This document shows, piece after piece, positions 4,994 to 47,361 of a DNA stretch of 64,000 nt. Every line of letters starts with the position of its first letter. Position 1 is the stretch's first letter. Both the position numbers and the translations under genes were made by a program. Source of the DNA: a virus. The stretch lies in IMG/VR virus record IMGVR_UViG_3300032309_001546, positions 64,001 through 128,000 of that record; one strand, given 5' to 3'. The notes below the pieces were generated by a model that saw only the letters and a list, made by a program, of their open reading frames with translations, ran no database searches and was not told the DNA's origin.

Positions 4994-5030
4994 TCTAGTA
5001 GAATCTCCAGTGATAAAGTAAATAAATAAG

Positions 5031-5112: not shown

Positions 5113-5167
5113 AATATAAGTGCTCAGGACGGGACTTGAACCCGTAATTCCAAGGAAGGCAGATTTT

Positions 5168-5855: not shown

Positions 5856-5897
5856 AAGTCTGCTGCGTATGCCGATTTCGCCACCTGAGCAAAGGCA

Positions 5898-7378: not shown

Positions 7379-7426
7379 AATATATCTCCTTTGTTACAGA
7401 TTAATTTTCAAATAACTAATTATAAG

Positions 7427-7498
7427 TGCTTCAAGTAGGATTCGAACCTACGCAATCTAGTTTACAAAACTAGGGCTCTGCCACTGAGCTATTGAAGC
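7427..7498 (-). tRNA. tRNA-Thr(UGU)
   Basis: GCTTCAA/TTGAAGC acceptor, CTAGT-TTTGTAA-ACTAG anticodon arm, GTAGG-TTCGAAT-CCTAC T-arm. Confidence 0.95.
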
Positions 7499-7499
7499 A

Positions 7500-7574
7500 T
7501 GGTCGGGATGACAGGGATCGAACCTGCGACATCTTGCTCCCAAAGCAAGCGCGCTACCACTGCGCTACATCCCG
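7500..7574 (-). tRNA. tRNA-Pro(UGG)
   Basis: CGGGATG/CATCCCG acceptor with encoded ACCA; CTTGC-TTTGGGA-GCAAG anticodon arm. Confidence 0.96.
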
Positions 7575-7604
7575 ATTAACAATAAGATACCGTACGAGTA
7601 CCAG

Positions 7605-7677
7605 TGCGACGGGAGGGGCTCGAACCCTCGACTGACGGATTAAAAGTCCGCTACTCTACCAACTGAGTTACCGTCGC
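7605..7677 (-). tRNA. tRNA-Lys(UUU)
   Basis: GCGACGG/CCGTCGC acceptor, GCGGA-CTTTTAA-TCCGT anticodon arm, GAGGG-TTCGAGC-CCCTC T-arm. Confidence 0.95.
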
Positions 7678-7698
7678 AAAATAGCAAACAAAATAAAG

Positions 7699-7779
7699 TG
7701 GACCGGGTGGGGGTCGAACCCACATAGCTTGCGCGTTCCGTTATGAGCGAAATTCCGTAACCAATTCGGAGGCCAGTCC
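7699..7779 (-). tRNA. tRNA with CAU anticodon, probably tRNA-Ile2 (lysidine); atypical structure
   Basis: GGACTGG/CCGGTCC acceptor, TTTCG-CTCATAA-CGGAA anticodon arm, 12-nt variable region, GTGGG-TTCGACC-CCCAC T-arm; lies immediately downstream of tilS. Confidence 0.8.
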
Positions 7780-25238: not shown

Positions 25239-25283
25239 ATACCTCTCATGTTGTACTCTAGAATATAGAGCGTTTGGGGAAAG

Positions 25284-25358
25284 TGTGCCCGACTGGACTT
25301 GAACCAGTGACCTACGGCTTAGAAGGCCGTTGCAACTATCCAACTGTGCTACGGGCAC
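25284..25358 (-). tRNA. tRNA-Arg(UCU)
   Basis: GTGCCCG/CGGGCAC acceptor, ACGGC-CTTCTAA-GCCGT anticodon arm, ACTGG-TTCAAGT-CCAGT T-arm. Confidence 0.95.
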
Positions 25359-25386: not shown

Positions 25387-25881
25387 TTAGAAGCCGTCTC
25401 CATCCTCGAAGACAAAGTTGTCAGCAGGATTTCCGGCAGTCTGACGACGACGCACAGTAGTACGAGCCACAGCACGGACTGCAGGAGTTGCCACAGGACC
25501 AGCCGCCTTCATCTGCTGAGGAGCTGGAGTAGAAGCAGGTGCTGCTTCCTTGGTTGGCCGGCGACCATAGTTGATCTCATTCGCGACAACTTCAGTGATG
25601 TAGCGGGTCTCACCCTTGCTCTCATACTGACGAGTCTTGATTCGACCCTCGATCTCGGCCTCACTACCCTTTGACAGGTACTTGGCAGCATTCTCTGCAG
25701 CCTTACCCCACACAACAACACGATGCCACTCCGGCTCACTGACCGTCTCTCCCGCCTTATTTACGTACTCGTAATTAGTGCAGATAGACAAAGTAGCCCG
25801 GCTACGGCCAGTTTCAGTCGTAGACAACTTGGGATCATCACCAAGGAAACCACGAAGCTCAACACGATTCTTATTACGCAT
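25387..25881 (-). CDS. ssb: Single-stranded DNA-binding protein
   Basis: NRVELRGFLGDDP, EWHRVVVWGKAAE..AKYL.KG....IEGRIKTRQYE, acidic tail EDGDGF. Confidence 0.95.
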   Translation of the reverse strand: MRNKNRVELRGFLGDDPKLSTTETGRSRATLSICTNYEYVNKAGETVSEPEWHRVVVWGKAAENAAKYLSKGSEAEIEGRIKTRQYESKGETRYITEVVANEINYGRRPTKEAAPASTPAPQQMKAAGPVATPAVRAVARTTVRRRQTAGNPADNFVFEDGDGF

Positions 25882-30888: not shown

Positions 30889-31087
30889 AGGCGAGCGCAG
30901 CGATGCCTGTGCTGCGGCGTTGTTGCTGTTGCCTGCGTAGCGCAGCGGAGCAGGCTGTGTTGCTACCTGCGGAGCGCAGCGAAGCAGGGTAACCACGTAG
31001 CGCAGCGGAGTGGTGTGTCCTGTGGTTCTGATGAGCGTAGCGCAGCGGAGTGAATCAGAGGCGAGGACTCGGCGCAGCCCAGCGGAG
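30889..31087 (+). promoter_or_regulatory. Cluster of about five GC-GCA-GC triloop DNA hairpins
   Basis: AGGC-GA-GCGCAGC-GAT-GCCT; CCTGC-GTA-GCGCAGC-GGA-GCAGG; CCTGC-GGA-GCGCAGC-GAA-GCAGG; ACCAC-GTA-GCGCAGC-GGA-GTGGT; one more near 31036. Confidence 0.65.
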
Positions 31088-31169
31088 TATCTGGACTTTT
31101 TTACGACTATTTGTACTATTTTTGTATTATAGAAAGAATAGCCCATTGCTGGGCTACTCAATCTAATGG

Positions 31170-34100
31170 CTACTTCTTACCCGTGATACGGTTAAGACGT
31201 GCCGCGACACCGGCCTTCTTCTCCGAGGGAGCAGGGGCGGGCTTCTCTTCAGCCTCAACCTCGGCGTCGAAGTCATTGGGATCGATGAAGATAATCTTCA
31301 GGCCCGACTCTTCAGCGTAATCAACCGCATTCTTTGTACCGCCAGTGCTGCCATCCCAGACAGCAATGACGATATCGGCGCAGTCAATCATCTGCATGTT
31401 ACGGCGCTGCATGCAGAACTTGTCTTCGCCATAGGTCTTCTCGCTGACCTGGACGACTTCGCTGGCAACTTCCAGCATGTTCCAGTAGCGCTGCTTGGCT
31501 TCGCGGGGCCACATAGCCTCCTGCTCTACACAGGGGATCATGACCGTGAACGGGATACCCATCTCGTGCGCAATCTCTGCCGCATCCTGGTCAACGCCAA
31601 GGGCACCGCCAGTGATTAGCCAGAGCTTCTCACCGTGCTTGGCAAGACCACGCTCAAGCTGAGCCGCAATCTGTTCACGTACCCAGATGCGCTTCTCCGC
31701 ATTGGGATTGTATCCGCCGATCTTGTCGGGACGGTGACCAGTGAAGGCCACAAAGAAGTACTCCGTCTCTTCGGCTTCAACTTCCTCAGTTGCAGCCGCG
31801 ATCTTAACCTTGAAGGGATCGACATACAGCATACCGGGCTTGTAGTCTGCATACCCTTCGGGGCGGTTGTTGTGGGTAGACTTCGCGCCCGCAGGAGGAT
31901 TCGGCAGAGTGCTGACATCCCGCTTCTGGATGTAAAGCATTACTCCATCAAGTCGGGCTTCGTCATACCAGGCTTGAGGGCCCTTCTGGCGGATCTGCCA
32001 CTCGCTAAGGTCAACGCTATCAGCATCAAACTCGATGTAGGGGCCATGGTCCCCGTACACAATGCGTGCGTACTCGGTTGCAATAATGCTTCCATTCGGG
32101 GTTTGGATTTCCCCATCAAAGCCCTGACCATCCTCACGGAGTCCGAGTTTGGCTTCGACTTCACGCTTGTCGGCTTCGCGATTAGGCAAACCAAGCGTTG
32201 TGGACTTGAAGTCTTCGGACTCTTCGTCTTCGGCAACAGGGCACACAGCGGCCATCGAGGGGCCATTGTCTTCGTATCTGGCTTCGCAGGTCGGGCAGAG
32301 ACCGGCCACGAAATCCCCCTCGACTTTGCAGTCCTCACAGGCATTTGTGCAAATGCGGCAGCCAGCGCCCTCGCACACTTCGCACACAGATGTGGGGATG
32401 GACTCTTCTGCTTCTTCCTCAGTCTTGTTGGCAAGGCGCAGCAGGACGTCAGCGTGGCAGGCTTCGGGTGCACAATGGCAAATCAACGACTTGCCAGTAA
32501 GTTCTCCGAGGCTATCCATGAGATTAACCTGTGCCTTCACCCAAGCCTCGTACTTGGCAATGACTTCCTCACGGTTGCCATCGCGGCCAAGGACGAAGGG
32601 ATTACCCCACTTGCTGGGACGGCCAACGTATACCGCACCGGAAGGAATATCCTTATCTGCCCGGTTGTAGACGGCAGGTGCAGCGTTAGCAACGACCGGA
32701 GCGCTAGCCTCAGTGGCTTCAGACTCTTCGTCTTCGCTGTCCACCCAGCAATCGGTGTAATCGAAGCGGTCGCTGCTCTTGGCCTTCTCGTCTTCCTCAA
32801 AGACCTCGGACTCTTCCTCTTCGTCACCGTACTGGCTAGGGTCGAAGTCCGGGTTCTCTTCACCGAAGTCCGGCTCTTCTGCATCTTCCGGCTCGGGCAT
32901 CTCGTCAGCGTCCTCCGAGATGTCATACTCGTGCGAGGGCTCATCCTCGTAACCCTCCTCGTACGTATCCTCTTCAGGCTCATCACCAGAGAAGACATCG
33001 TTGAGATCCTCTTCGCCTCCACCCTGAGGACCGTTGTCGTCGCCAAGGAAGGTGAGGATCAGGAAGCTGTTCAAGCCCTGAGGCGCGAACCTGGTGCCAA
33101 CAGCCACGGTGCGACCCATGACAGTTTTACCATTCTCGTCCTTGGTCTTGATGTCGGGGTTCCACTCGGTAACCCACTCACGCTCCACAAGCTCTGCCTT
33201 CACCGCAGTACCCGGGAAGATCTCGATCAAGCGACGCAGGAAACCGAATGAGTCAGCAGCTTCAAGCGTGCTCATAGCGTTGAAGCTGTCGAGCTCAGCC
33301 TGCGCTTCTGCGATCTTTGTCTCGCTGGGCTTCTTGGCCTTCTTCAAGTCAGCCAGTGCGTGACGAAGCTCCTCACCCTTGTTCTTCCGACGAAGCTCGA
33401 TCTGACGACCGATTTCGCTGACAGTCGCAAGCTGACCCTCAAAGCCATTGGCCTCTCGACCATCGCTGATGCGCACGCCGGGCAGGCTGAGAAGACCATC
33501 GATCCCCCAGCCAAGCTTCTCGCCGTCACCGCCGAAGCCACCGCAGTTCTTCTCACCACGGATGTAGGCGAGGAGAGCTTCTGCGTCCTGGCGTACCGTC
33601 GGGGTACCACCCTTGCCCAAGTAGAGAGCAAGCTGACGGGCTTCACCGAGGCTGTTATCGTCGAGGCCGTTGATTGCGGCAATGCCATTGCTGGACATCC
33701 AGTCCGTGAGGTATTCCCAGGGACCGCCGACGAAGAACGCAGTGGTAGCGATACCGCCATTCGCCTTAAGGTTGCCATTGGCATCCTCGGTGATGGTGAT
33801 CTCAAGAGCCTGTGGCTTCGCATCCTTGCCGACCTTCTTGGCCTTCTCAGCAGGCTGCAGGTAACGATTGGCAAAGGCAAGCCAGGCCATCTTCACAGCA
33901 GCGTCGCGGTCTTCAGCCTCAAAGTTCTTGAGGATGTACGACTCGATCTGGGAGTCTACGAGTTCAATCGCCGCTCTGATGGGCATCGCCGAGTAGGCCA
34001 GCCAGAGTGCCTTCTTGGCACGCGAGATGTTGCCGCCAGCCAGCATTGCACTGACGACCCTGTAACGACGGTTGCTCTCGTGGCCTGCAGGAGCCATGAT

Positions 34101-37100
34101 CTTGTGGATCAGTTCCTGGTTGGTCCAAGCCTGGAGGTTCTTGAAGCTACCGGGGCTCCAGTTCCAGTAGAGCCAGGCCTCGGTCTCTTCGCCAGGGGCC
34201 TCGTCTTCCGTGCGACCAAGCCAAGCAGTGAGCGTCTGGTGCAGGACGTTCTGGCGACCAGCTTCCCACTGAGCATTGGCGAGGGATTCGACCTCATCGA
34301 TGCACCACTGGCGGTAGTCAGCCCAGAGGGTGTAGACCTTCGAGCTAAGCTCACCAGCGACGAGGTGGGTAACGATCTCGCCTTCTTCGTTGCGGACGGG
34401 AGCGGTCACCTTCGTGCCATTCTCGAACAGGGGCTGCATGTCTTCACCGAGGACAGCAACACGCTTGGCCGGGTCGACGAACAAGCTCTTCGCACCAAGG
34501 CTGAGCTTCCGCAGAACGGCAGGCACGAATGCCCAACCTTCACGGCCCTTGCCTTCGGTGACAAGGTCAAGCCAGACCTGGTAGACCTGCACCATCCGGT
34601 AGGATGCCCAGGCTTCAGCGTAACCCGTCATCTTGACCGCTGCGTCAACGATGTCGGACAACGTCACGCCGAAGAGGAGCGTCTCGGAGATCTCCTCACG
34701 AAGCTCCTCGAGGAAGGTAGGCAGCTTCACCCAGCCAACAGCCAGGGACATGCCGTAGATCTTCGCGTTAGCGACGATACCAATCGCCTTCTGGAAGACG
34801 TTCTCCTCCATGTTCATCACCGACTCGTACAAGCTCTCGTGGCTCATACCAGCAGTGGTGGCTTCGACCGGCGCTTCGGGCTCCGTAACGGCGGTAATGA
34901 CGAAGTTCTCCGTCTTCACCTTGAAAGCCTGACCGAGGATCGTGGCCGCGTTGAGGCGGGTCCACAGGCTCTTGTTCTCCGGGATACCGGCGACCATCTT
35001 AGCACGGAGCGCGTTCTTCTGTGCACGCTTCTCGGCGTTGAGCTTCGCCTTATCAGCAAGAGCGGTACGCCAGGCCAGACCCTTCACGATGAGCATGGCA
35101 AGCTTACCACGCGCAGTGGGGCAGCGGTCATCATAGTCCATGCCTTCGTTTGCCTGGAGCAGGAGGACTACCGTGTCTCCGCTCGCCGTGGTGAACATGA
35201 TCACCATACGGCCGCTTACGCCGATGATGAAGATATTCAGGCTTTCCGGCAGCTCACGGATCTCCGCAACCGTGCCCGACGTTTCGCCGGTGGGGTTACG
35301 GAAGAAGATTGCCAGGTTGGGCGCGCAGTTGTTCTTCGCCCAGCGAGCAAAGTTGGTGCAGTAGACAATAAGACGACCATCAGCCGTCTTCGTCTCCAGC
35401 TCCATGGTCTGCTTCGCCTTCGTAGCAACCTCCTCAGAGTGCTGCCCTTCAGCAATCCAAGCCGCATGCAGCATCGGCCAGAGGACCGGGATGGGGTAGG
35501 TTGCCCACAAGTCGCTTCCCTCCTCGGTAACAGGAGCGATCTTCATCGAGCCAGGCTCAATGTTCTTGCTCAAGGTGCCAACCAGCTGCTGTGCCAGCAT
35601 GCGGAAGGGGAGAACAGGGATTCGCATCGCGCCGAGGAGCTTCGCAAGAACGCTGTTGCGGTTGTCCTCGACCTTGGCCTCTTCGTCGCCAGCAACGAAG
35701 TCGTCAGCATCCTCGTCCAGACCCTTCAGGAAGTCGGGGAGACGCTTCTTGGCGTAGGCGATGTAGCCAGCAATGAGCTGGTAGAACTCCTTCGAGTTGA
35801 CCTCAGCTCCGAGAAGCATAAGGATCGACTGAAGCGACATAACCGCCTTCTCCTTCGTGAGCGCCGCAGTGCCGGGGATCCAGCAAAGGGCATAGTCGTT
35901 CTGGGTAGCGGACCACTCGGTCTTCACCTCACTGGCAATGATGCAGACGCCTTCAGGGAAGTACCGAGCCGGAAGCGGGATGCACATACCCTTGATCAGA
36001 CCTTCGCTGGTCAAGATACGAGCCACCATCGGAGCGGTCAGACCCATGGCCTTCGCCACGTCGGCACGGACAAGCACAAGGCCGTCGAAGAACTTGACCA
36101 GTGCAGCGGCAATCTTGCCCAGGTCCAGGACCTTACCCGGCAGGACAACGCGGGCAGTAACCCGCGAGATCCAGTACGAGTCAGCATACTTAGCAATGCG
36201 GCCCAGGGTCTTACCCTTGAACCGCAGAGCCGCCATGCTGACCTTCTTGGCTTCGGGCGTGCAGTAGAGGGTCATACCCTTCTGCAGAACCCGAATGGTG
36301 ACAAGGCCAAGCTTCTTAGCGTTGGCCACGGCATCGGTATCGTCGTCAGCGACAACGAGACCTTCGAGGAGTCCAGGGCTATCGTCAGCCGCAGGACTAG
36401 TAGCACACGCCTCCTCAAGGAAGGCTGCGAACGTGCCGGGAGTGCATACCCGGACTTTCTTGTTACCCATCTTGTTCTCCTTAGGGGTGGGTGCCCCGGT
36501 GTGCTTCGTCGAGGCCAGGATGATTCCCGGCTTAACGGAAGCTTTGGTGTCGTTGTTGGTGCTGGTGGCTTCACCGTTTAGGTCATTGTTGACCTCGGCA
36601 AAGATATCCTCGCAAGCCGCCATAAGACGAGCTGCGATGGCTGAGATGGCGTCGCTGGGGATGCCGGCATAGAGGCGGTCATAGCCACCTCTCATGGTCA
36701 ACTCGGTACCGTCCGCCTGGCAGACATTGCAGAATTGGCCCTTTGAGCCAAATCCTGCAACACCGCAACCGACGCAGGTCTCGGGCCCGCAGTCGGCTTC
36801 GCTGGGCTTAGCCTTAACCATGGCCTCGAGCTTCGTCGCAAGGGCATTGCCCACTACAACGAACAGGATACCGACGATGCCGACGACAAACAGAAAGCCG
36901 GGTCCTGCAAGGAACTCGGCCGGGCTCTTAGCCCAAGCGGCTTCGACCGCCTGGCTGAACGTGGGTGCTGCAGCGGCGAGTACGGCGATAAGCGGGGAGC
37001 TGGCCTTCACCGCATTGCGGCGTTGGCGGCTCAGTTCCCGCTTTCTGGTGCGCTTCTGGGCATCCTCAGTCGCCGTCATGGCGAAGAAGACGCTTGCGGT

Positions 37101-37967
37101 ATCCTGTGCGGACTTGCCCGTGTTACCACAGACAGCGGCTTCGATGCGCTTGGCAAGGGTGGTCTTGATGACCACAATCTTAGCGCCGATAGCTACGGGC
37201 TTCACAGGAGTAACCTGCTTGGCCTTTGCCGCCGCGATGTGCGCCGAGAAGGTCATGGCCTTCGTGACGCGGGGGAATTTCGCGACGGGCTTCGCAGCAG
37301 CCTTAGCGACGGGCTTCGCAACGGGCTTGGAGGCAGCCTTGGGAGCAGGCTTTACAGCGGGCTCAGCGACGGCTTCCACTGCCACTTCCGTGACAGCAGC
37401 AACCTCGATGGCAGGGGCAGGGGCAGGCTTCACAGGAGCCTTAGCGACAGGCTTGGCAATTGCCTTCGGAGCGGGCTTGGCGACAGCCTTGGGGATATGG
37501 ACCCCCTTCGACCGCAGCCAGCGGTCAAGGCGGATAGTGGTCCAGCAGTTACGCCGGGCCAAACGGGCTGCATGGCGGGTAAGCGCCTGCAGCCTGAGCG
37601 ACGCCGCCGACTGGGCAGCAACAGTCCGCCGAAGCGGAAGGACGATGGCGTATACGTTCGCCAGAAAACGGGCCACGAAGGCCAAGATGACACGGACCAT
37701 GGGATGGTCCTTACCCTCCGCGAGGAGGATTGGGGTGGTCGGCTTCACCGAATTGGCAAAGCGGACCACGAGGGAAGCGGGGATGCGGGGAGCGATGCGG
37801 GTTGCAGCCTCCGTGACCAGCACGAAGCTGGTGACGAAGAAGCTGACTAGGGCAGCGGCCTGCTGCGAAAGGGTGGGGGCCAGCTGGGCCTCCACGGTCA
37901 GCGCCGTTGCGAAAACGGCGAACACCACAGCCACGATGGCGGTGATGGCGAGTTGGATCCGAGACAT
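31170..37967 (-). CDS. 2265-aa polyvalent protein: N-terminal TM/AKP-rich region, putative single-chain two-barrel RNA polymerase core, acidic tract, DUF4326, Zn-finger, unknown domain, C-terminal YspA-type SLOG
   Basis: Ordered motifs FFDG, R.....IKG, FFRNP, GMDYDD, IG..AN, SDIVDAAVK.TG; DUF4326 VYVGRPSKWGNPF...L.CHCAP..CHADVL; SLOG AFTGHRP...GGALGVD...MQRRN..MID.....IAVWDG..GGT.N.V.YA. GGAGG RBS. Confidence 0.75.
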   Translation of the reverse strand: MSRIQLAITAIVAVVFAVFATALTVEAQLAPTLSQQAAALVSFFVTSFVLVTEAATRIAPRIPASLVVRFANSVKPTTPILLAEGKDHPMVRVILAFVARFLANVYAIVLPLRRTVAAQSAASLRLQALTRHAARLARRNCWTTIRLDRWLRSKGVHIPKAVAKPAPKAIAKPVAKAPVKPAPAPAIEVAAVTEVAVEAVAEPAVKPAPKAASKPVAKPVAKAAAKPVAKFPRVTKAMTFSAHIAAAKAKQVTPVKPVAIGAKIVVIKTTLAKRIEAAVCGNTGKSAQDTASVFFAMTATEDAQKRTRKRELSRQRRNAVKASSPLIAVLAAAAPTFSQAVEAAWAKSPAEFLAGPGFLFVVGIVGILFVVVGNALATKLEAMVKAKPSEADCGPETCVGCGVAGFGSKGQFCNVCQADGTELTMRGGYDRLYAGIPSDAISAIAARLMAACEDIFAEVNNDLNGEATSTNNDTKASVKPGIILASTKHTGAPTPKENKMGNKKVRVCTPGTFAAFLEEACATSPAADDSPGLLEGLVVADDDTDAVANAKKLGLVTIRVLQKGMTLYCTPEAKKVSMAALRFKGKTLGRIAKYADSYWISRVTARVVLPGKVLDLGKIAAALVKFFDGLVLVRADVAKAMGLTAPMVARILTSEGLIKGMCIPLPARYFPEGVCIIASEVKTEWSATQNDYALCWIPGTAALTKEKAVMSLQSILMLLGAEVNSKEFYQLIAGYIAYAKKRLPDFLKGLDEDADDFVAGDEEAKVEDNRNSVLAKLLGAMRIPVLPFRMLAQQLVGTLSKNIEPGSMKIAPVTEEGSDLWATYPIPVLWPMLHAAWIAEGQHSEEVATKAKQTMELETKTADGRLIVYCTNFARWAKNNCAPNLAIFFRNPTGETSGTVAEIRELPESLNIFIIGVSGRMVIMFTTASGDTVVLLLQANEGMDYDDRCPTARGKLAMLIVKGLAWRTALADKAKLNAEKRAQKNALRAKMVAGIPENKSLWTRLNAATILGQAFKVKTENFVITAVTEPEAPVEATTAGMSHESLYESVMNMEENVFQKAIGIVANAKIYGMSLAVGWVKLPTFLEELREEISETLLFGVTLSDIVDAAVKMTGYAEAWASYRMVQVYQVWLDLVTEGKGREGWAFVPAVLRKLSLGAKSLFVDPAKRVAVLGEDMQPLFENGTKVTAPVRNEEGEIVTHLVAGELSSKVYTLWADYRQWCIDEVESLANAQWEAGRQNVLHQTLTAWLGRTEDEAPGEETEAWLYWNWSPGSFKNLQAWTNQELIHKIMAPAGHESNRRYRVVSAMLAGGNISRAKKALWLAYSAMPIRAAIELVDSQIESYILKNFEAEDRDAAVKMAWLAFANRYLQPAEKAKKVGKDAKPQALEITITEDANGNLKANGGIATTAFFVGGPWEYLTDWMSSNGIAAINGLDDNSLGEARQLALYLGKGGTPTVRQDAEALLAYIRGEKNCGGFGGDGEKLGWGIDGLLSLPGVRISDGREANGFEGQLATVSEIGRQIELRRKNKGEELRHALADLKKAKKPSETKIAEAQAELDSFNAMSTLEAADSFGFLRRLIEIFPGTAVKAELVEREWVTEWNPDIKTKDENGKTVMGRTVAVGTRFAPQGLNSFLILTFLGDDNGPQGGGEEDLNDVFSGDEPEEDTYEEGYEDEPSHEYDISEDADEMPEPEDAEEPDFGEENPDFDPSQYGDEEEESEVFEEDEKAKSSDRFDYTDCWVDSEDEESEATEASAPVVANAAPAVYNRADKDIPSGAVYVGRPSKWGNPFVLGRDGNREEVIAKYEAWVKAQVNLMDSLGELTGKSLICHCAPEACHADVLLRLANKTEEEAEESIPTSVCEVCEGAGCRICTNACEDCKVEGDFVAGLCPTCEARYEDNGPSMAAVCPVAEDEESEDFKSTTLGLPNREADKREVEAKLGLREDGQGFDGEIQTPNGSIIATEYARIVYGDHGPYIEFDADSVDLSEWQIRQKGPQAWYDEARLDGVMLYIQKRDVSTLPNPPAGAKSTHNNRPEGYADYKPGMLYVDPFKVKIAAATEEVEAEETEYFFVAFTGHRPDKIGGYNPNAEKRIWVREQIAAQLERGLAKHGEKLWLITGGALGVDQDAAEIAHEMGIPFTVMIPCVEQEAMWPREAKQRYWNMLEVASEVVQVSEKTYGEDKFCMQRRNMQMIDCADIVIAVWDGSTGGTKNAVDYAEESGLKIIFIDPNDFDAEVEAEEKPAPAPSEKKAGVAARLNRITGKK

Positions 37968-38259
37968 GAGTTACCTCCTAGTCAACGGGGTCCAGCGCGA
38001 TCTATAGGGAAGCATTCCCTATGACCGACATACCAGTGTCTTGTAACACACTGGAAGATTTCTGGTCCTTTATGGGAAGGACCCTGTTTAAAACCCTGGC
38101 TTTCTGTTCGCTCCGGCATTGACCCATACTACCTTCTTGGAAGATACTGGGGTGCCATTCGAACTATCCGGCCCATTGCGACCACCCCTTAGCAGAGAGC
38201 TGGTCCACATTTTAGCCCATAGTAGTGCAACTATTTAAGTATCGTACAAAAAATACCCT

Positions 38260-39810
38260 TCCTGGGAAGTTCATTAAAACACTTACACACCCAGTGTGCA
38301 GTTTGCTCAACGCATAAATTACTAGTCTGATACTTGTTAACAGACCAGCGATCTATACGCCGTGAACCCATCCAGGGACGCCAGGAGCCTTGCCTCCGTC
38401 CTGGGATTAGCTTCGCACATTAGCATGACATAAAGCGTTTTATCCCTTAAAGGATTCTTGCGCTGCAGTCTTCTTCTCCCACTACATTACTAGACTAGAG
38501 GTTCAATGGGCCTCTATGCTAGGGATCTTGCCGCCGAATTGCGCGAGAAGATATAACCATCCTACTCCTTTTGAGAGCAAGAGCATCTAGTAATTACCTG
38601 ACCTATGTGTAGTTATCTATGGGCAAACAGATCCTAACAAGAACTGAACCTCTGGCAGCGGTTTCTTGTTAGTTTAGGCGTACAAGCGCCTATCCCCTCT
38701 TATACGTGCATGCCTGGCAGTCATCACATACTAATTGGGGGCTGATCTTTTGCTTGCATAGTGATTTGGGTTCTTCTTACCAGTAAGAGCGGCGCTACTC
38801 GCTAAAACCAGTATATAGGGTGTTTATAACCCAATCCAAATGCAAACGGCTCCTCGGTATTTCAACCGAATCACAGCCTTCTACAAGTGTCAAGTGTGGG
38901 AGTCAAAGACACAGCATCCTTCTTGGGACGCTTTGTGTCATACTTCTGTTACGAAGCTAAAGCAACGAATCTCACCATCTCACAGACCAGGTCCTGTCTA
39001 CACAGTAATCAACTGTATAGCGGTTATCTGATCTGTCCTCGTTGATTCCTCGTTATCTCTGCAGAAGGGCTACCGCTTAAAGTAGAAATCCTCCTGGATA
39101 ACTTGGTCCACCGGCCACACCTGCTAGAGTGCGCCTACTCTGTCTCACGACAGTTGGGGAATTATGCAGCATTTACTCTGTAAAAACAGGGAAAGGGTTC
39201 AGCACTTGCCGCCTTGCTTAAGGGCGGGAGTTTGCCTATCACGAGATCTGCTTGTGTCGGTTTTGCGGGGTGTTTTTGTTGAGGTTCCCCTTTTGCCTCC
39301 TTTTTTAAAGTCCGTACTCTCTTTCGAGGACAACAGACTTAGTGCGCGTAATCAACGCTTGGGAAAGTTAAAACCCATATAGTCATCTTTGGTGAGGGAT
39401 GACGCCCTACTGCCGACAGGCAGACCCCTAAAATCTCTATTAGCCATACTTGACATCCACACCACCGACATATTAGGAGCTTTCGCCCCCGGAAGAACTG
39501 TTCCTCCTTGGTGTTTCAGTCTGTGTTGCAGGCCGTACGAGATCTTAGGTTGACAGTTTTTCTGCTACCGACTTTTAGGGATTGCTCCCTCCGCCGGATT
39601 TATGCAGGAACACAGTTTTGGCTGTTAGCCTAGCTGCTTATACTGTCCTCGTGTCCTCTCCGACCATCCACCTTTGGGCATGGCCAGATACTGCACAAGT
39701 CAACGAACCGGTAAGATTCGTTGCTTATTTTTTATGGGGCGTTAACTACGTGCAAAACCTTGCCAACGCTGATCCCCACATATGGTCACTCCATATGTTT
39801 AAGACTCCAC
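38260..39810 (-). ncRNA. Candidate large structured non-coding RNA (about 1.55 kb)
   Basis: No minus-strand ORF of 60 aa or more; bounded by two copies of the cassette element; dense in inverted repeats. Confidence 0.5.
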
Positions 39811-39999
39811 TGTTTAGCCCATAGTATTCTTTTGACGACTATTTTTGGACTATTTGAGTAAAGTAAAACAATTTAACCCATAACTATACAACTCTTTGAG
39901 TATTAGAGAAAAAATAGCCCTTAACGCGGGCTAGACGTGCTTTTCTGTTCCCAAGAAGCAACTCTCGGATGGGCACCACCCCATCAGGCACCTCCCGTT

Positions 40000-40287
40000 T
40001 CAGGGAGACGGGCACTCCCCATCTTTGAGGTGACGCTTGCTGCGCACACAGCCGTATTCGGCCATGCGAGCCTCCACCTTGCGAAGGTGAAGAGTGTCAC
40101 CCCAAACCGAGATGTAGGGTTTATTAGCCAAAGCTCCGAGAAGCCGGCCAATTCCCCACATCACGTCGGAAGCCTCGTCCTTGAGTTCTTCAAGGTTTTT
40201 AACCTCGAAAAGCTCTACTGCCTCTTCGGCAATATGGACGATAGCAACCCGGATGGGAAGCACCTCAAGACATTTACAGAAATGCAT
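40000..40287 (-). CDS. Small MazG-like NTP pyrophosphatase-fold protein
   Basis: HIAEEAVELFE...ELKDEASDV (EExxE...ExxD); AAGGAG RBS. Confidence 0.55.
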   Translation of the reverse strand: MHFCKCLEVLPIRVAIVHIAEEAVELFEVKNLEELKDEASDVMWGIGRLLGALANKPYISVWGDTLHLRKVEARMAEYGCVRSKRHLKDGECPSP

Positions 40288-40445
40288 CTGTAGACTCCTT
40301 GTGGTAATGCTGTATGCAGTACAGCGCTGTGAGTAAAAGGATCTTTACTTCACTGTTTAGCCCAGACTAGTGTACTATTTAAGTATGTTTCAAAGAATGA
40401 CCCATCTTGCGATGGGTCACTCAGTGATGTCTCTCTTCCCTTTCT

Positions 40446-40808
40446 CTACTTCCGCCAGGCCCCAGTACGAGCCTCGACCACAGTCTTGAGGTTGCAGTAG
40501 AGGTTGCCCACCGCATAGCGGCAGGGGGTAGCGGTGGTCAGCCAGTCCTCGTTGGACTGAAGGTCGGGACCCTTGGCCATGGCCAGAGAGTAGCGAGCTT
40601 CCTCTGACAACTGGCATTTGGCCAGAGTCTTGCGGTGCACCGAGACCTTGACGGTGTCGATCTCGCCGCTGAAAGAAGCCGCCACGTGGTTCCAGCCGAT
40701 GGCCTTGAGGGCCTCGACGATCTCCGTCTTGTAGACCGAGACGGGAAGGGTGGGGGGGAAGGAGATAAGGAGCGCGCTATCCGTCACATCATTGATCTTC
40801 TTGCACAT
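40446..40808 (-). CDS. Hypothetical cassette gene
   Basis: Start MCKK after GGAGG; GC3-rich codons; has its own repeat element. Confidence 0.75.
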   Translation of the reverse strand: MCKKINDVTDSALLISFPPTLPVSVYKTEIVEALKAIGWNHVAASFSGEIDTVKVSVHRKTLAKCQLSEEARYSLAMAKGPDLQSNEDWLTTATPCRYAVGNLYCNLKTVVEARTGAWRK

Positions 40809-40953
40809 GGTTTCCTCCATTGGAAAGGCGGTGTGGCGCACCGTGGCAGGGGGTAGAATCTGCCATCTTCTAGTTCATAGTAGGACTATTTAAGTACTAT
40901 AGATTACTTACCCCACCTTGCAGTGGGGCTTTCATCTACCTCAACCTCAGCTC

Positions 40954-41100
40954 TTAGTCCTGCATGCAGCTCCACGAGATGCCGATCCAGGACAGGATCA
41001 GAAGACCCGCGCAGACCGGCTCCATCACGCCAGAGCCAAAGCTCCAGCCGAGGGTGCAGGTTGCGAGGAGGAAGCTGGCGGTAGCGATTGCATTCTTCAT
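40954..41100 (-). CDS. 48-aa two-helix membrane protein (not in the ORF track)
   Basis: MKNAIATASFLLATCTLGWSFGSGVMEPVCAGLLILSWIGISWSCMQD; GGAG RBS; fills one cassette. Confidence 0.7.
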   Translation of the reverse strand: MKNAIATASFLLATCTLGWSFGSGVMEPVCAGLLILSWIGISWSCMQD

Positions 41101-41244
41101 GACATTCTCCAGTTTGGCATCATTCTTTACGAAGTGTAAAGCTATGTATGCCCACAGCCTAGCCCATACTACTATTTGTGTATCCTAGAAAAGATAGCCC
41201 ACCTCCTCAGGGTGAGCCATCCTATCTATCCTCAATCGCTCTAG

Positions 41245-41424
41245 TTACTCGCTGCGGTCAGCAAGCCAACCACCACGACGCACCGACTGGCGGCACGCGA
41301 GGCAGTCACAGCCCCAAAGGGCGTCGGCGATGTCGCTTTCCCAGGCAAACTCCTCTTCCTCCGTGAGGAGGACGATGAGCTCGATCTGAAACAGGGCGAG
41401 GATCTTGACAAGAATCTTGTCCAT
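41245..41424 (-). CDS. Hypothetical cassette gene
   Basis: Start MDKILV after AAGGAG. Confidence 0.7.
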   Translation of the reverse strand: MDKILVKILALFQIELIVLLTEEEEFAWESDIADALWGCDCLACRQSVRRGGWLADRSE

Positions 41425-41549
41425 GGCTAACTCCTTTACGAGTGGGGACGACATTATCCCAAAGCTGGCCAAAGATTAACTCATAGCAGTACAACTATTT
41501 ATGTATTGTCGATTACTTACCCCTTACGGGGCTTTCGTCGGGTTGCTCT

Positions 41550-41810
41550 CTACTTGTCGCCGCATACCGGGAGTGGCGTGCCGTTAGGCACGTCACTCAT
41601 CGGGTGTGGGTGAGTCGCAGAGAAGTCTACAATCCACCACCGCCAACGGGTTTCCCCGCTAAGGCTGCAGTCGATCTCAACAAGCTCGTCCTCAACGCAG
41701 TACCCAGCAACCTTCGGCTCGATCGTACCGGTGGTCGGCACGGGGAGCGTGTTGTTGCTGGAGCAAGCGGTGAGGAGCGAGGCAAGCAACGCGATCTTCA
41801 ACTTATCCAT
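41550..41810 (-). CDS. Putative lipoprotein
   Basis: MDKLKIALLASLLTAC: signal peptide with lipobox LTAC; AAGGAG RBS. Confidence 0.75.
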   Translation of the reverse strand: MDKLKIALLASLLTACSSNNTLPVPTTGTIEPKVAGYCVEDELVEIDCSLSGETRWRWWIVDFSATHPHPMSDVPNGTPLPVCGDK

Positions 41811-41934
41811 GAGATCTCCTTTCGGTTTGGGTGACATTACCCATCTCACCGTTTAGCCCATAGGACTGTTTAAGTATTGTTCAAAGAATAGCCCGCCTAA
41901 GCGAGCCACTCGATGATGCAGTCTACCTCATCCT

Positions 41935-42135
41935 CTAGTCATCGAATCCATACTGCCAAAACAGCGAGGACACGATGGCCATGCCGATCAGCACGATCGT
42001 TGCGAACGTGCCGAGAGCGTTGAACAGGTTCTCGGGGCCGGCGACCCGAAGCCAGTTGTCCATGAGGCAACCAGCGAAGAACATATTCAAGAGGTGAACG
42101 AAGACGCGGACAATGTTCCAGAGAACCTTAACCAT
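41935..42135 (-). CDS. Small two-TM membrane protein
   Basis: Start MVKVLW after AAGGAG; two hydrophobic segments. Confidence 0.75.
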   Translation of the reverse strand: MVKVLWNIVRVFVHLLNMFFAGCLMDNWLRVAGPENLFNALGTFATIVLIGMAIVSSLFWQYGFDD

Positions 42136-42276
42136 GACAGACTCCTTTCTAGTAATATTCCCCAACGAAATGCGGGGCTATATCACCACACTTTAACCCA
42201 CACTACTTGAACTATTTAAGTACAGTAGAAAAGATAGCCCACCTTGCGGTGAGCCAGAGCTTCCCTGATTGTGGAC

Positions 42277-42567
42277 CTAAGGCTTGTTAGCCAAGTGGTC
42301 CGTGATGGCCTTGCTGTTGCCCTGCGAAGGGCAGCACCCAAACTCGCGGAACCAGTAGTCCCGCTTGTTATGCCACTTCTTCTTGGCGGCCTTCTTCCGA
42401 GCCTCGCTTGCCTTTTTACGGGCAGCACGGACAGAGGCGCGAATCTTGCGAGCCTGCTGACGAGTTTCCTCGTCAACAAGCCCGCAGAACAGGATCATGA
42501 AACCCGTTCCTGCACCCCCGAGAAGAATGACGGCGAAAATCAATCGCAACCACATCATCGAGTCCAT
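42277..42567 (-). CDS. Membrane-anchored basic protein
   Basis: N-terminal TM then K/R/A-rich helix; AAGGAGG RBS. Confidence 0.75.
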   Translation of the reverse strand: MDSMMWLRLIFAVILLGGAGTGFMILFCGLVDEETRQQARKIRASVRAARKKASEARKKAAKKKWHNKRDYWFREFGCCPSQGNSKAITDHLANKP

Positions 42568-42725
42568 AACAAACCTCCTTTACGTTAGGTTAGCGCTCTG
42601 CGAATCTGCAGTTTACGCCATGTCATGTCACCTTCTAAGTCATACTATTTAAGTATCTTAGAAAAAATGACCCGTCCAAAGACGGGCCATGTTCCCTTGC
42701 CCACCCTAAGGTGAGCCGTTGCTCT

Positions 42726-42968
42726 TTACCTGAACGGAACGTACAGGTAGAGAGCGCGACGATTGAACCCAGTCGCCTTGTGGATGCTCGCGAAGAGCCG
42801 GTATTCCGGGGGCGAGCTGGTCATGGCGCTGTAAACGCCACGTGCGACCTGGTAGCCGCATCTGCTCCCGCGGTTCTCGAAGGCAGTCCAGGCCGCAGCC
42901 TGAGACAGCCAGTCGAGAAGACGATCCTCCTCTGTCTTGGGGGTCGTCTCGTTGGTGTTGTTGCTCAT
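42726..42968 (-). CDS. Hypothetical cassette gene
   Basis: Start MSNNTN after AAGGAGG. Confidence 0.75.
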   Translation of the reverse strand: MSNNTNETTPKTEEDRLLDWLSQAAAWTAFENRGSRCGYQVARGVYSAMTSSPPEYRLFASIHKATGFNRRALYLYVPFR

Positions 42969-43123
42969 TTTATCCTCCTTGAAGGTTGCAGTGTGGCGCA
43001 CTGGGCAGGGGGTAGAATCTGCCATATATTAACTCATAGCAGAACTCTGTAAGTATTAGAGAAGAAATACCCCACCCTAGCATAAGCCAAAGTGGGGCAA
43101 TCCTCTAGTCCATCAACCAGTTA

Positions 43124-43351
43124 TTACCAGTTGAAATCCTGCTCAACATGATGGAGCACCTCAGTGCCAAACACGCTGAACCGAATCAACAGTCGAAGGC
43201 GCACAGGGGTGCCACCCTCGATGCCGTGGTGCTGCAGCCCAAAGGCCACAAGATTCTTCCACCCACGGCCGGGGTGGGGAGTGGTGTCAATGACAACACC
43301 GTTCACCATGGTCTCAACCTCAAGCAACTGCATCTCGGTCGTGATCATCAT
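43124..43351 (-). CDS. Hypothetical cassette gene
   Basis: Start MMITTE after GGAGG. Confidence 0.75.
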   Translation of the reverse strand: MMITTEMQLLEVETMVNGVVIDTTPHPGRGWKNLVAFGLQHHGIEGGTPVRLRLLIRFSVFGTEVLHHVEQDFNW

Positions 43352-43551
43352 CTTATCCTCCATTGAAAAGGAAGGGAATTTCACCCCACCCGAGAACACT
43401 CTCAGGATTTGAAGTTCATAGAAAATTTGAACCTCCACACTTTAGCTCATACTATTTAAGTATATAAGAAAAGATGGCCCATCCTCTCGGACAGGCCACC
43501 TAAGCTAATACAAGCTGACTCAAGGGCTCAAAGGATCAAGCTCTCAATCAA

Positions 43552-43752
43552 TCAATGCCAGGGATTACGCCCAGCAGGATTGAAGAAGCCGCGACGGGCG
43601 CACTCACGCTTGATCTCCTCGCGCCTCTCTTCCATATCCCGGCAGTAGCTGTTGCCCCAGCCGTACTGGCTGTGGAAACGGACATCATCCGCGAGAAGGT
43701 TGACGGAAATGAGGGAATTGCAGTTCCGAATCTCAATCTTCAACTTATCCAT
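43552..43752 (-). CDS. Hypothetical cassette gene
   Basis: Start MDKLKIE after GGAGG. Confidence 0.75.
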   Translation of the reverse strand: MDKLKIEIRNCNSLISVNLLADDVRFHSQYGWGNSYCRDMEERREEIKRECARRGFFNPAGRNPWH

Positions 43753-43892
43753 GGCAAACCTCCAGGTTGAAATCACTCCTATGAAATATAGGTAGTGTGC
43801 CAAATGTTAACTCATAGTAGTACTCTGTTAGTATGTTAGAAAAGATAGCCCCCGAAGGGGCCAGAGCTTGACCAGAGCGTGAGCTCTAGTTA

Positions 43893-44156
43893 CTACTTGT
43901 ACATCGCCTTAATGAAGGCGTTCTCGATGGCGCGAACCAGCTGCCAGCTCGCGTTCATCTCCTTGTCCAGGTCCCAGGAGGAACCGTCCTTGGCCTCGAT
44001 GTCCTTGAGGCGGGAGATCTCGACCTTGATCGTGCTAAGCGTGTTCCGAAGCTCCTCATGGGAACCCTCTTTGATACCGTTGTTGTCAACAGAATCATTG
44101 AAGGTTGCCCAGCAGGTCTCCGCAATCTCGCTCATCTGGATCATGCTCTTGTTCAT
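43893..44156 (-). CDS. Hypothetical helical cassette gene
   Basis: Start MNKSM after GGAGG. Confidence 0.75.
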   Translation of the reverse strand: MNKSMIQMSEIAETCWATFNDSVDNNGIKEGSHEELRNTLSTIKVEISRLKDIEAKDGSSWDLDKEMNASWQLVRAIENAFIKAMYK

Positions 44157-44313
44157 CTTATCCTCCGTTGGTTGGAAGGGAATTTCACCCTGCCCGAGAC
44201 AATTCCCAGGACTTGAAGCTAGTAAGATTACCAACTCCCACATGTTAACCCATAATACTATTTGAGTATCTTAGAAAAGATAGCTCGCCATTACAGCGAG
44301 CCAGAGCTAATCT

Positions 44314-44670
44314 CTAACGCCAGTTGTGAACAATGCTGAACCAGGGTTGAACCAGGTCAGCCGGAAGCTCCTTGTGGAGCTTATCCGTGATTTCCCTCCA
44401 CTCCAGCATGTGCTGGTAGCGGATAGAGGACGGGATCTCACGGTTGTAGCCGTGGAACCCCTCAAACCAAGCGACGAACACCTGGATATCCTCTGCAGTA
44501 GCCTTGCGAGCCTGATCCCTAATCTCCTCAAGGGAGACCTGGGCAGCAGACTTGACGGCAGGAGCAACGTTGACAGTCTTGACGCTCTCCTTCCCGAAGG
44601 GGAAGAAAAGAGTAACAAGGCCGACGACGAAGCAAAGAGCCATCAAAGCGACAAGAATAACGTTCAACAT
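44314..44670 (-). CDS. Membrane-anchored hypothetical protein
   Basis: N-terminal TM; AGGAGG RBS. Confidence 0.75.
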   Translation of the reverse strand: MLNVILVALMALCFVVGLVTLFFPFGKESVKTVNVAPAVKSAAQVSLEEIRDQARKATAEDIQVFVAWFEGFHGYNREIPSSIRYQHMLEWREITDKLHKELPADLVQPWFSIVHNWR

Positions 44671-44789
44671 GGCAAACCTCCTGGTTGAAATCGTTCCTAT
44701 GAATTATAGGTAACGTGCCACAAGTTAAGTCATACTATTTGTGTATGTAAGAAAGAATGACCCACCTTGCGATGGGTCACTCAATCAGG

Positions 44790-44981
44790 CTACAGAGAGA
44801 AGTATCTCTGTGACCACACGACGGACAGGCTGTTCCACGTACCCCAGGTCAGGGTGCTATGGCGGGTGTGCTTGTCCATGCTGCGGTCGATGACATCAAG
44901 CTCCTTGCGGGAGACTGCCGAAGCAATCTCTTGAAGGAACTTCTTTGCCAGGTACTCATTAGACGCGACATTGATTCTCAT
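44790..44981 (-). CDS. Hypothetical cassette gene
   Basis: 63 aa; GGAG RBS. Confidence 0.7.
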   Translation of the reverse strand: MRINVASNEYLAKKFLQEIASAVSRKELDVIDRSMDKHTRHSTLTWGTWNSLSVVWSQRYFSL

Positions 44982-45084
44982 TGTCTATCTCCATGAAGGG
45001 TGAAATTACCCACATACTATCCCATACTATTTAAGTATAGGAGAAAAAATGACCCATCTCTCGATAGGTCATTGATCCTAGTAC

Positions 45085-45639: not shown

Positions 45640-46035
45640 CAAAGGGGGTGGGCTAAAACGAATAGGGGGTACACATCTTTACCAGGCGGGCTATATAGAG
45701 TACCCACTCTTTTCCGAAAAAAAATATATTAATTATATATATCCAGATATATAGCCTGTCTTTAGATTGCTCTTTTCCAAAAAAAATATATATAAATATA
45801 TAAGCCTATATAGAGTTCTTTAGGCAAGTCTACGTCCCCTTTTCAGACCTATACCCCCTTTTCCCCTAGCTTTCCCACTAAGTGTTTTCTCAAAATATAT
45901 ATAGAGGTTTTCCCCTATACTATATATAGGACTTTTCCTTATACATATAAGGTCTTTCCTTAAATAATATTTAAGGTTTTTTCCTTTTCCCTATATAGCG
46001 TCCCTTATGGTATCAAGTTAATAAAGTTTAAACTT
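45640..46035. other. Divergence point; AT-rich low-complexity region, candidate genome terminus or packaging site
   Basis: Strand switch and abrupt GC drop; two GGGGGT runs (45643, 45665), duplicated CTCTTTTCC.AAAAAAAATATAT (about 45708, 45770), many TATA/CCCC runs; adjacent to the TerS-like gene. Confidence 0.55.
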
Positions 46036-46038
46036 AGT

Positions 46039-47361
46039 TTGATTACTAGTAAGAAGTACTCTGTTTTGGCACACTATAACGACATTAATAAGGCTAATAA
46101 TAAGAAGCCTAGGTCTTCACACGATAATAGTGCTGGGCGGGGAGTTGATAACCCATATAAGAATGCAGAGAGACTAGCTCAACCTACTTATACTGGAACT
46201 ATCTCTGGACAAGTTATAGATCCTTATACTCTTAAGAATAGCTTAGAGTTTTCAAGTAGGGAAGAGGAGATGCCTTTTGACTTGCAAGCTCTTTCTGAAG
46301 AAGAAAATGTTAATGTTATAGAGAGCGCAAAGGGCCTTCCTACTAGGGGTCTTGCTATCAGTGAGGATAAGTCCTTTACTAAGACTGCTAGTCTCTTAAA
46401 GGACTCTAGTCTCGTCTCTGGCAATCATAATACTAATGGTCTTGGCGGCGTGGAGGCCAGTACACAAATACTACTTGATAGAGTTGGGGAGCTTTTAGAT
46501 AACGATGAAACATTACTGGAAAGAGCTGAGCCCCTTGATCATACTTCTTCTACTTCTATCTCTCTTAAAGATGCTTTTCAAAGTGCTTTAGACGCCAGTG
46601 ATCCTAATACTATAGATGTTAATGCTTTCTTCTCTAGCAGTAGTCTTGGGACTTTTCTTGGTAGTGATCCTGATCTATATAAGGACTTGCATATAACACC
46701 TCAGAGTGCCGCTAGAATGAGGTCGCATCTTGCCGCCGTTAAACATGGTACTTATGCTAGTGTGCCTCTTATCTGTAAAGGATATGAGAGTTGCCCCATT
46801 CGCAGCTCATGTTGGTTTGCTGTTAAGAAGGACAATGGAAGTATTGATCTTGCCTCTAGTAAATTCCCAGTACTGCAACCTTGCCCGGTAGAAGCTAGTA
46901 TTCTTCAGGTTAAGGTTAAGCAATACTGCAGTGAGAACTTTAGAGATATGAATAACATTACCCCTAGTGTTATTAGCTTGGCTACCAAGCTTGCTGAACT
47001 AGATATCTATGAGATCCGGGTTAATATGCTGTTATCTCAAGGTGACAGCCTTGGCGAGGGTAGAGACTTAATGCAGGAGGCCGTGCTAAGTAGCGACTTA
47101 CATGGTAATCCTGTTAAGACTGCGATGAAAGAACATCCTGCTTTTGCGTTGAAGGAACGCTTTCAGAAGATGCGTAGTCAATTGATGAAGGAACTTTTAA
47201 GTACTCCAGAAGCTAAGTTAAATGCGAGGGCTAAGATGGAGTCTACTAAGGTTGAGAGTGTTAGTTCAACAATGACAAAAATGTCTGCTGCATTAAGTAA
47301 GATTAATAGTTTAATAAGAGATAATAAAGATAGTGATCCTTTTGATTACGAAGATGATTAG
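46039..47361 (+). CDS. Putative terminase small subunit with N-terminal extension
   Basis: C-terminal KEHPAFALKERFQKMRSQLMKELLSTPEAK resembles the P27-type TerS motif K.HPA...........EL..TP..R; Cys cluster C....CP....C...CPVE; first gene of the packaging arm. Start uncertain. Confidence 0.6.
   Translation: MITSKKYSVLAHYNDINKANNKKPRSSHDNSAGRGVDNPYKNAERLAQPTYTGTISGQVIDPYTLKNSLEFSSREEEMPFDLQALSEEENVNVIESAKGLPTRGLAISEDKSFTKTASLLKDSSLVSGNHNTNGLGGVEASTQILLDRVGELLDNDETLLERAEPLDHTSSTSISLKDAFQSALDASDPNTIDVNAFFSSSSLGTFLGSDPDLYKDLHITPQSAARMRSHLAAVKHGTYASVPLICKGYESCPIRSSCWFAVKKDNGSIDLASSKFPVLQPCPVEASILQVKVKQYCSENFRDMNNITPSVISLATKLAELDIYEIRVNMLLSQGDSLGEGRDLMQEAVLSSDLHGNPVKTAMKEHPAFALKERFQKMRSQLMKELLSTPEAKLNARAKMESTKVESVSSTMTKMSAALSKINSLIRDNKDSDPFDYEDD

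Follow-up and report, generated by a model that had tools for sequence, protein, structure and literature searches.

The window analysed here is a stretch of 64,000 nucleotides, bases 64001-128000 of the 145.9-kb IMG/VR phage record IMGVR_UViG_3300032309_001546, which is estimated to be 84% complete (phage of ~170 kb). Its minus strand carries a giant gene, P0001, which is one open reading frame (ORF) of 2265 amino acids (aa). The frame starts with an ATG at 37967, and a Shine-Dalgarno sequence, AGGAGGT, lies 6 nucleotides (nt) 5' of it, as expected of a good start. An internal core of the protein is predicted to fold as a single-chain two-barrel RNA polymerase (RNAP), and its metal-binding loop reads DxDD. 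The gene, the motifs (placed by residue-to-coordinate conversion) and the predicted domains of the core are as follows.

31170..37967, minus strand: giant ORF P0001, single open frame, 2265 aa
36081-36092, minus strand: FFDG, with D628-G629 at 36081-36086
36015-36017, minus strand: R651
35988-35993, minus strand: K659-G660 of GLIKG
35292-35300, minus strand: R890-N-P892 of FFRNP
35127-35138, minus strand: DYDD metal-binding loop, D944-Y945-D946-D947, one residue less than DxDxD
34770-34772, minus strand: A1066 of GIVAN
34641-34658, minus strand: LSDIVDA, S-D-x-V-D-A motif S1104-A1109, with S1104, D1108 and A1109 invariant
34188..36290, minus strand: predicted two-barrel polymerase core, aa 560-1260 (the modelled part), from the AlphaFold2 model and its structural matches
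35877..36161, minus strand: predicted N-terminal barrel (beta/Rpb2-like, double-psi beta-barrel DPBB-B), aa ~603-697, beta-strands at model residues 44-138
35073..35543, minus strand: predicted C-terminal barrel (beta'/Rpb1-like, DPBB-A), aa ~809-965, model residues 250-406

An earlier note on this DNA had located the motifs in the 2265-aa frame, and all of its coordinates, including 35127-35138 for DYDD, agree with the conversion. The N-terminal barrel holds D628-G629, R651 and K659-G660, and the C-terminal barrel holds R890-x-P892 and G942-x-D944-x-D946-D947. The S1104-A1109 motif is presumably comparable to the S.AVD..KTG motif of RNA-dependent RNA polymerases (RdRPs).

The structure of aa 560-1260 was predicted by AlphaFold2 with an alignment of 20 sequences (model m65cafc6e4aac). 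The predicted local distance difference test score (pLDDT) of the model is 86.2 and its predicted template modelling score is 0.85, and pLDDT exceeds 88 at every motif position. A single-sequence prediction of aa 540-1560 reached a pLDDT of 37.5 and was discarded. In the model, the DxDD loop is found between helix 371-381 and strand 390-393 with a pLDDT of ~91. The Foldseek search against the PDB gave exclusively single-chain two-barrel polymerases at ranks 1-28 (E <= 0.01), among them QDE-1 (E 6e-6, prob 1.0), P32 gp64, phi14:2 gp66, Arabidopsis and maize RDR2, P74 gp62 and P23-45 gp96. Isolated domains of the DPBB type appeared below these, from rank 29 on (E > 0.01). An all-against-all aligner independent of Foldseek returned ZmRDR2 (Z 14.8 over 435 aa), QDE-1 (Z 13.8 over 451 aa), P74-26 gp62 (Z 12.3 over 391 aa) and gp96 (Z 9.5). 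The beta'/Rpb1 barrels of the Pol I, Pol III, M. tuberculosis, African swine fever virus, phiKZ and AR9 RNAPs map to model residues 250-406, as do designed DPBB proteins, and this segment includes RxP (331-333) and DxDD (385-388). The matches in BFVD were uncultured phage proteins, crAss-like proteins, P23-45 gp64 and phage proteins annotated as 'RdRP'. The modelled core contains the two double-psi beta-barrels that characterise the DPBB RNA polymerase superfamily. The two-barrel RNA polymerase-like domain claimed in the earlier note, for which structure prediction with Foldseek had been set beforehand as the check, is thus borne out by the model. The core is placed with the single-chain two-barrel polymerases because of its predicted fold and its motif order, not because of a sequence profile.

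Homologues were collected by an exhaustive HMMER search with aa 470-1560 over 1.84 billion cluster representatives (E <= 0.001). The search yielded 20 proteins, 12 of them at E <= 1e-30, and the identities are 23-35% except for one 90% relative. The DxDD polymerase family is small and restricted to phage metagenomes, with its 20 clusters among 1.84 billion representatives. A word-indexed search with the family alignment found just three close relatives. Pattern-based scans for relatives gave none in IMG/VR, none in GTDB genomes and one metagenome locus, and tblastn against 50,697 cultured or deposited phages gave no match. In the alignment of the 20 homologues the mean column identity is 25%. 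Nevertheless, K593, Y594, D628, G629, K659, G660, P671, Q713, R890 and P892 are invariant, and so are G942, D944, D946, D947, A1066, S1104, D1108, A1109 and A1119. R651 is present in 20/20 after an insertion that four of the sequences carry is placed behind it. GxDxDD appears exactly once per protein in 24/24 family members, a set that includes three close relatives. The conservation of the DYDD, RNP and KG residues, which the earlier note had set as a test, was therefore found, with DG, KG and RxP invariant in 20/20. Judged from the aligned sequences, the motif pattern in the giant ORF is far beyond chance.

Eight residues are listed as invariant in all two-barrel RNAPs, and in QDE-1 these are D709, R738, K743, R962, P964, D1007, D1009 and D1011 (PMC2919709). 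Their counterparts in the giant ORF are D628, R651, K659, R890, P892, D944, D946 and D947. The spacings in the giant ORF and in QDE-1 are 31 versus 34 from D to K, 231 versus 219 from K to R, and 54 versus 45 from R to D. The invariant D, R/K and K of the beta-type barrel and the RxP of the beta'-type barrel occur in all 20 members. A literal DxDxD is absent: the third Asp is shifted by -1 (i+3, not i+4) throughout the 24 members, and this shift is the sole departure from the eight-residue set. DxDxD is described as the signature of two-barrel polymerases (PMC2919709, PMC10770324), and a DxDD two-barrel polymerase was not found in a literature search on DxDD with RNA polymerase and phage. What is new here is a predicted two-barrel polymerase family in which the loop is always DxDD and the other active-site residues are kept. 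The invariance indicates that selection acts on the loop in its present form. Considering the model together with these residues, it is quite probable that the core (aa ~560-1260) is an active single-chain two-barrel polymerase with a DxDD loop.

Outside the core, the giant protein carries the following segments.

37632..37967, minus strand: three N-terminal hydrophobic membrane-type segments (aa 1-30, 37-56 and 90-112), hydropathy scan
37188..37475, minus strand: Ala/Lys/Pro-rich low-complexity repeats with a 12-nt period (families D2 and D5)
36822-36923, minus strand: fourth hydrophobic segment, aa 349-382, hydropathy scan
32439..32654, minus strand: DUF4326, aa 1772-1843 (Pfam PF14216, E 5.9e-24)
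31272..31751, minus strand: YpsA-type SLOG, aa 2073-2232 (Pfam PF06908, E 8.6e-17)

The two C-terminal domains were the only Pfam matches on the giant ORF, and PHROGs gave no match on the core. With the RNAP core, DUF4326 and the YpsA SLOG in one chain, the protein has the make-up of a polyvalent protein (at least two unrelated domains in one chain). The DUF4326 and YpsA-SLOG pair would process ADP-ribose-derived nucleotides. N-terminal membrane-type extensions were also found in the long relatives P0002, P0003, P0013, P0015, P0016, P0017 and P0020, and relatives of ~1060-1250 aa begin directly with the core and have no extension. The accessory domains differ from member to member. HIRAN is present in P0003 and P0016, a metallophosphatase in P0020 and a PIF1/RecD-like helicase in P0011. 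DUF4326 and YpsA are fused again in P0018 (23% identity) and form a separate gene beside P0011. The homologue P0003 at locus L006 (L006:6416-18316) was called with 2771 aa, and its frame is open for 3966 codons. This open frame has a membrane segment at its start and immediately follows the divergent junction of the early and structural blocks; the gene caller had shortened it. Two minus-strand genes called 5' of P0003 are probably shadow ORFs of the GC-rich coding sequence.

The phage encodes TerL, a portal, a DnaG-DnaB fusion, a DnaE polymerase, RecA, ribonucleotide reductase (RNR), ligase and PhoH. Its own sigma-70-family factor lies outside the window (G000:C1:32881-33987, minus strand; Sigma70_r2, E 5e-19), so the host RNA polymerase would be redirected too. 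No T7-like, Rpb1 or multisubunit RNAP domain was found in the record, that is, in 84% of the genome, and the other large proteins of the record gave no convincing DxDxD candidate. One sub-threshold match to PF21769 'vRNAP_dom' (E 0.005) in a 440-aa neighbour was rejected as spurious, with no PDB support. The terminase is nearest (about 28-30% identity) to those of Moorella MTATph1, Bacillus 0305phi8-36 and Acinetobacter ME3, and the latter two phages have themselves been linked to YonO-like or two-barrel proteins.

The giant gene stands in a one-directional block of ~21 kb (window ~24.5-45.6 kb, 24500-45640) with 47-64% GC versus ~38% for the genome. The same GC island was found in the relatives at loci L002, L004 and L006. 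Since the island and its synteny recur on independent contigs, the GC-rich region is no assembly artefact. The downstream gene for a single-stranded DNA-binding protein (SSB) recurs on them too, and SSB follows the polymerase gene in 5 of the contexts seen. The HIRAN and helicase fusions and the SSB downstream fit the reported preference of QDE-1 and gp66 for single-stranded DNA (ssDNA). We propose that the core of the giant protein would transcribe early or middle genes of the phage itself as a DNA-dependent RNA polymerase, probably on a single-stranded or hairpin-extruding template together with the phage SSB.

Two classes of repeated element surround the giant gene, class A mainly upstream of it and class H downstream. 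Their main locations, in the window and in relatives, and that of SSB are listed here.

38205..38263, minus strand: class-A element directly 5' of the giant gene, with terminator hairpin and T-run, ATACTTAAATAGT, TATGGGCTAAAATGTGG and a ~240-nt leader
38227..45057, minus strand: array of 15 class-A cassettes, each with element, leader, Shine-Dalgarno sequence, small ORF and terminator
31112-31146, minus strand: 16th class-A element, just 3' of the giant gene
30890..31088, minus strand: class-H hairpin cluster, GCGCAGC on the plus strand and GCTGCGC on the sense strand
25387..25881, minus strand: phage SSB gene (Pfam SSB, E 1.8e-27), ~70 nt downstream of a class-H element
L006:18846-25904, L021:6318-10445 and L008:13895-19258: class-H loci in relatives

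The sense strand carries all 16 copies of class A. A copy is made up of a terminator-like GC hairpin and T-run, then 5 nt, ATACTTAAATAGT, a spacer of 0, 3, 6 or 9 nt and TATGGGYTAA-N4-TGTGG. The element is followed by a leader of 40-240 nt, a Shine-Dalgarno sequence and an ORF, and each copy heads a small monocistronic cassette. A sigma-70 consensus scan of the sense strand of the cassette array gave no site, which rules out canonical -35/-10 promoters only. Terminator-like sites are three-fold enriched on this strand (21 versus 7.1 expected). The class-A element is conserved in L004 and L005 and nearly unchanged in L002. A search for it in IMG/VR gave five loci, which were rejected as chance matches in coding sequence without the hairpin and T-run or the block-B context. 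Between two class-A elements, ~1.6 kb (38260-39890) is free of any sizeable sense-strand ORF. A matching 2-kb gap exists in L004 (5879-7867), and the region may hold a gene that was missed or specify a long non-coding RNA.

Further copies of class H are centred at 30200, 29732 and 25957. In the window and in L004 the element is GCGCAGC with GA/GA flanks on the plus strand. In L006 and L021 it reads N4-TC-C-TTC-G-TC-N4 on the sense strand, and in L008 it has a 7-bp stem with a TTC loop. The flanks are invariant (TC...TC on the sense strand, GA...GA on the template strand) and the stems covary: 96.7% of the cells are paired, 5/5 pairs show compensatory double changes, and 0/500 shuffles reach the observed values. 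The strand bias is 24:2 in L006 and L021 together. Class-H hairpins immediately follow T-run terminators, and 30-80 nt further on there is a gene, SSB among them. Promoters and 5' RNA elements are the candidate roles. Read on the template strand, the hairpins would be GNA-type mini-hairpins with tandem G-A, reminiscent of the promoters of the N4 virion RNAP. Several G-T wobbles on the sense strand, however, would be better accommodated by a hairpin of that strand or of the RNA than by one of the template strand. A third shared motif, ACTCCGCT, recurs too. As for the promoter of the giant polymerase, the class-H hairpins are a plausible candidate at somewhat less than an even chance, class A may be it with a slightly lower probability, and some other sequence is possible at a lower probability again.

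Other features of the region were noted. The main tRNA cluster is at 5030-7779, and a tRNA-Arg(UCU) gene (25283-25358, minus strand) is found separately from it, within the GC-rich early module. Where the early and structural blocks diverge (45660-46040; L006:6040-6300), the junction is AT-rich and holds about ten palindromic repeats of the CTATATAG type. Its DNA is conserved between both phages and is a candidate origin, packaging or regulatory site. Beside the terminase block, a 1273-aa protein (47393-51214, plus strand) has a C-terminal staphylococcal-nuclease domain. It is kept in relatives (1329 aa in L006 and in the P0016 contig) and may be a virion-borne nuclease.

Several results weigh against the reading of the core as an active DxDD polymerase. 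Pfam gave no match on any of the 20 family cores, with PF05183 (RdRP) silent even at E <= 10, and PF05183 found nothing in the six frames of the genome. The same PF05183 search gives a sub-threshold signal on B. subtilis, the home of YonO. Sequence searches of the PDB by phmmer with the protein, with the family profile and with a barrel-only profile were all empty. Comparison with YonO by hhalign was not significant with the single sequence or with the 20-sequence profile (prob 0.2%). At the level of sequence profiles, then, the DxDD family is not a member of the Pfam RdRP/YonO family PF05183. The earlier note had called the protein a very divergent member of the QDE-1/YonO type; the fold and the motif order uphold this, and the profile matches to PF05183 and YonO do not. 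The DxDxD triad is not literally kept, and a loop shortened by one residue could alter the metal geometry or the chemistry. The giant gene also shares its upstream element with small early genes. Moreover, class A is nearly identical in L002, although the RNAP there has only 32% identity, which suggests that its reader is more conserved than the giant enzyme and is possibly the host RNAP. If the host RNAP reads class A, the giant protein would be an early product like P23-45 gp64 or YonO.

The earlier note had left the choice between an active enzyme and an inactivated scaffold, and the invariant site favours the former. Such a scaffold would have lost synthesis and would serve a giant injected protein as a module for structure or DNA binding. 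The broken DxDxD speaks for it, as does the crystal structure of crAss gp66, which shows that a giant protein is able to hold the site in an inactive conformation. However, the metal-binding and NTP-contacting residues (D628, R651, K659, RxP and DxDD) are all unchanged across 20-24 sequences that share ~25% identity, and DxDD never varies. An active enzyme is favoured because every catalytic-site residue, the loop included, is kept at such low identity, and a scaffold is very improbable. The type of synthesis was considered as well. An enzyme that, like the eukaryotic RDRs, mainly copies or amplifies RNA of the phage, such as structured non-coding transcripts from the early module, would agree with RDR2 and QDE-1 as the best structural matches and with the ORF-poor, structured stretches that adjoin the giant gene. 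However, the phage enzymes of this fold that have been characterised (YonO, gp66, gp64 and gp96) are DNA-dependent, QDE-1 itself prefers ssDNA, and the HIRAN and DNA helicase fusions and the SSB neighbours point to DNA. RNA-dependent amplification is therefore considered improbable.

The helicase fusion of P0011 recalls a helicase-primase architecture, SSB genes adjoin, and binding to the 3' ends of DNA is commonly ascribed to HIRAN domains. These observations would suit an enzyme that synthesises or primes DNA for replication or repair, by analogy with PolD, with the altered loop reflecting an altered substrate. This role is already filled, however, because the phage has its own DnaG-DnaB fusion, DnaE polymerase, RecA, RNR and ligase. 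The structural neighbours are RNAPs, and no PolD chain was among the matches listed by Foldseek or by the independent aligner. Such an enzyme is hardly to be expected. Finally, the ORF has 59% GC in a phage of ~38% GC, as might be seen if the motifs were chance products of a low-complexity GC-rich frame or if the assembly were chimeric. The same gene and synteny on independent contigs from other samples, the GC-rich island kept in relatives, and the fold and the residue invariance already refute this explanation, and its probability is negligible.

An active DxDD polymerase could reach the cell in the virion or be made early after infection. Injection is favoured by the giant size, the membrane segments and the polyvalent make-up, and no other polymerase candidate was found that would read the non-canonical early elements. 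P23-45 gp96 is a precedent for the injection of a giant RNAP-bearing protein. On the other hand, the gene lies in an early block behind an early-type element, and the short relatives have no extension. To our knowledge, the genes of known virion RNAPs are all late, unlike the giant gene. Early synthesis would be slightly favoured, and injection from the virion stays a little below an even chance. In the most far-reaching reading, a working DxDD polymerase, delivered or anchored at the membrane in a giant polyvalent protein, would start at small strand-specific DNA hairpins with SSB and would carry anti-defence domains that degrade nucleotide signals. The strategy of N4 would then have been reinvented on an unrelated fold. 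The combination of all these parts is possible and rather doubtful.

DxDxD has been treated as the one two-barrel signature with absolute conservation, whether in bacterial beta', Pol II, QDE-1 or the enzymes of phages (PMC2919709, PMC10770324). It also serves as a search motif for new members, and motif-based surveys would therefore miss real polymerases. The DxDD family is a natural experiment on the tolerated change in metal-loop geometry. It would also add a lineage to the phage single-chain RNAPs, which are thought to be related to the ancestors of the eukaryotic RNA interference polymerases. The fusion with DUF4326 and SLOG would join transcription and predicted counter-defence in one chain, and the repeated elements with the SSB module form a compact, directly testable phage transcription system.

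Polyvalent phage proteins likewise unite, in one giant chain, unrelated enzymatic domains that are predicted to act early, DUF4326-SLOG among them, and the parts of that literature available to us do not mention a central RNAP core joined to DUF4326 and SLOG (PMC5512222, PMC9503650). DUF4326 has been described as a clade of rhodanese-phosphatases for which fusion to SLOG is frequent in DNA viruses, and processing of ADP-ribose-derived molecules has been predicted (PMC9503650). SPbeta YonO is also a phage single-chain two-barrel RNAP, and a YonO-like gene has been reported in 0305phi8-36 (PMC2919709). The YonO family matches PF05183 at least weakly, whereas the giant-ORF family does not, and the hhalign comparison of the two was not significant.

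The best fold matches, QDE-1 and plant RDR2 (PDB 2J7N, 7Y7P and 7W84), likewise have both double-psi barrels in a single chain, and in them D...R...K, RxP and the Asp loop follow one another in the same order as in the giant ORF and at similar distances. They have DYDGD or DLDGD in place of DxDD, and no profile similarity is detectable (PF05183 unmatched). The giant ORF also differs in that a phage encodes it and in its fusion to membrane segments, DUF4326 and SLOG. The crAss phage phi14:2 gp66 (PDB 6VR4) is closer in its architecture. It is also giant (>2000 aa), it has an internal QDE-1-like core that Foldseek matched with prob 1.0, and it prefers ssDNA templates. However, its motif is DFDID and its structural match is weaker (Z 5.8). 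Its gene is late and the protein has been shown in virions, whereas the giant gene is in an early block behind an early-type element. Phage single-chain two-barrel RNAPs are further represented by the non-virion P23-45 gp64 and P74-26 gp62 and by the tape-measure-fused virion protein gp96 (PDB 8F72, 8F5M and 8H2N). They keep DxDxD (DFDGD in gp96) and are not fused to DUF4326 or SLOG. In the phage studied here, only one RNAP was found, in 84% of the genome. Nevertheless, the Thermus phage RNAPs provide a precedent for an RNAP fused to a giant protein that forms a membrane channel, and for a relay where elements of one class drive the RNAP gene and those of another are read by the RNAP (PMC10770324).

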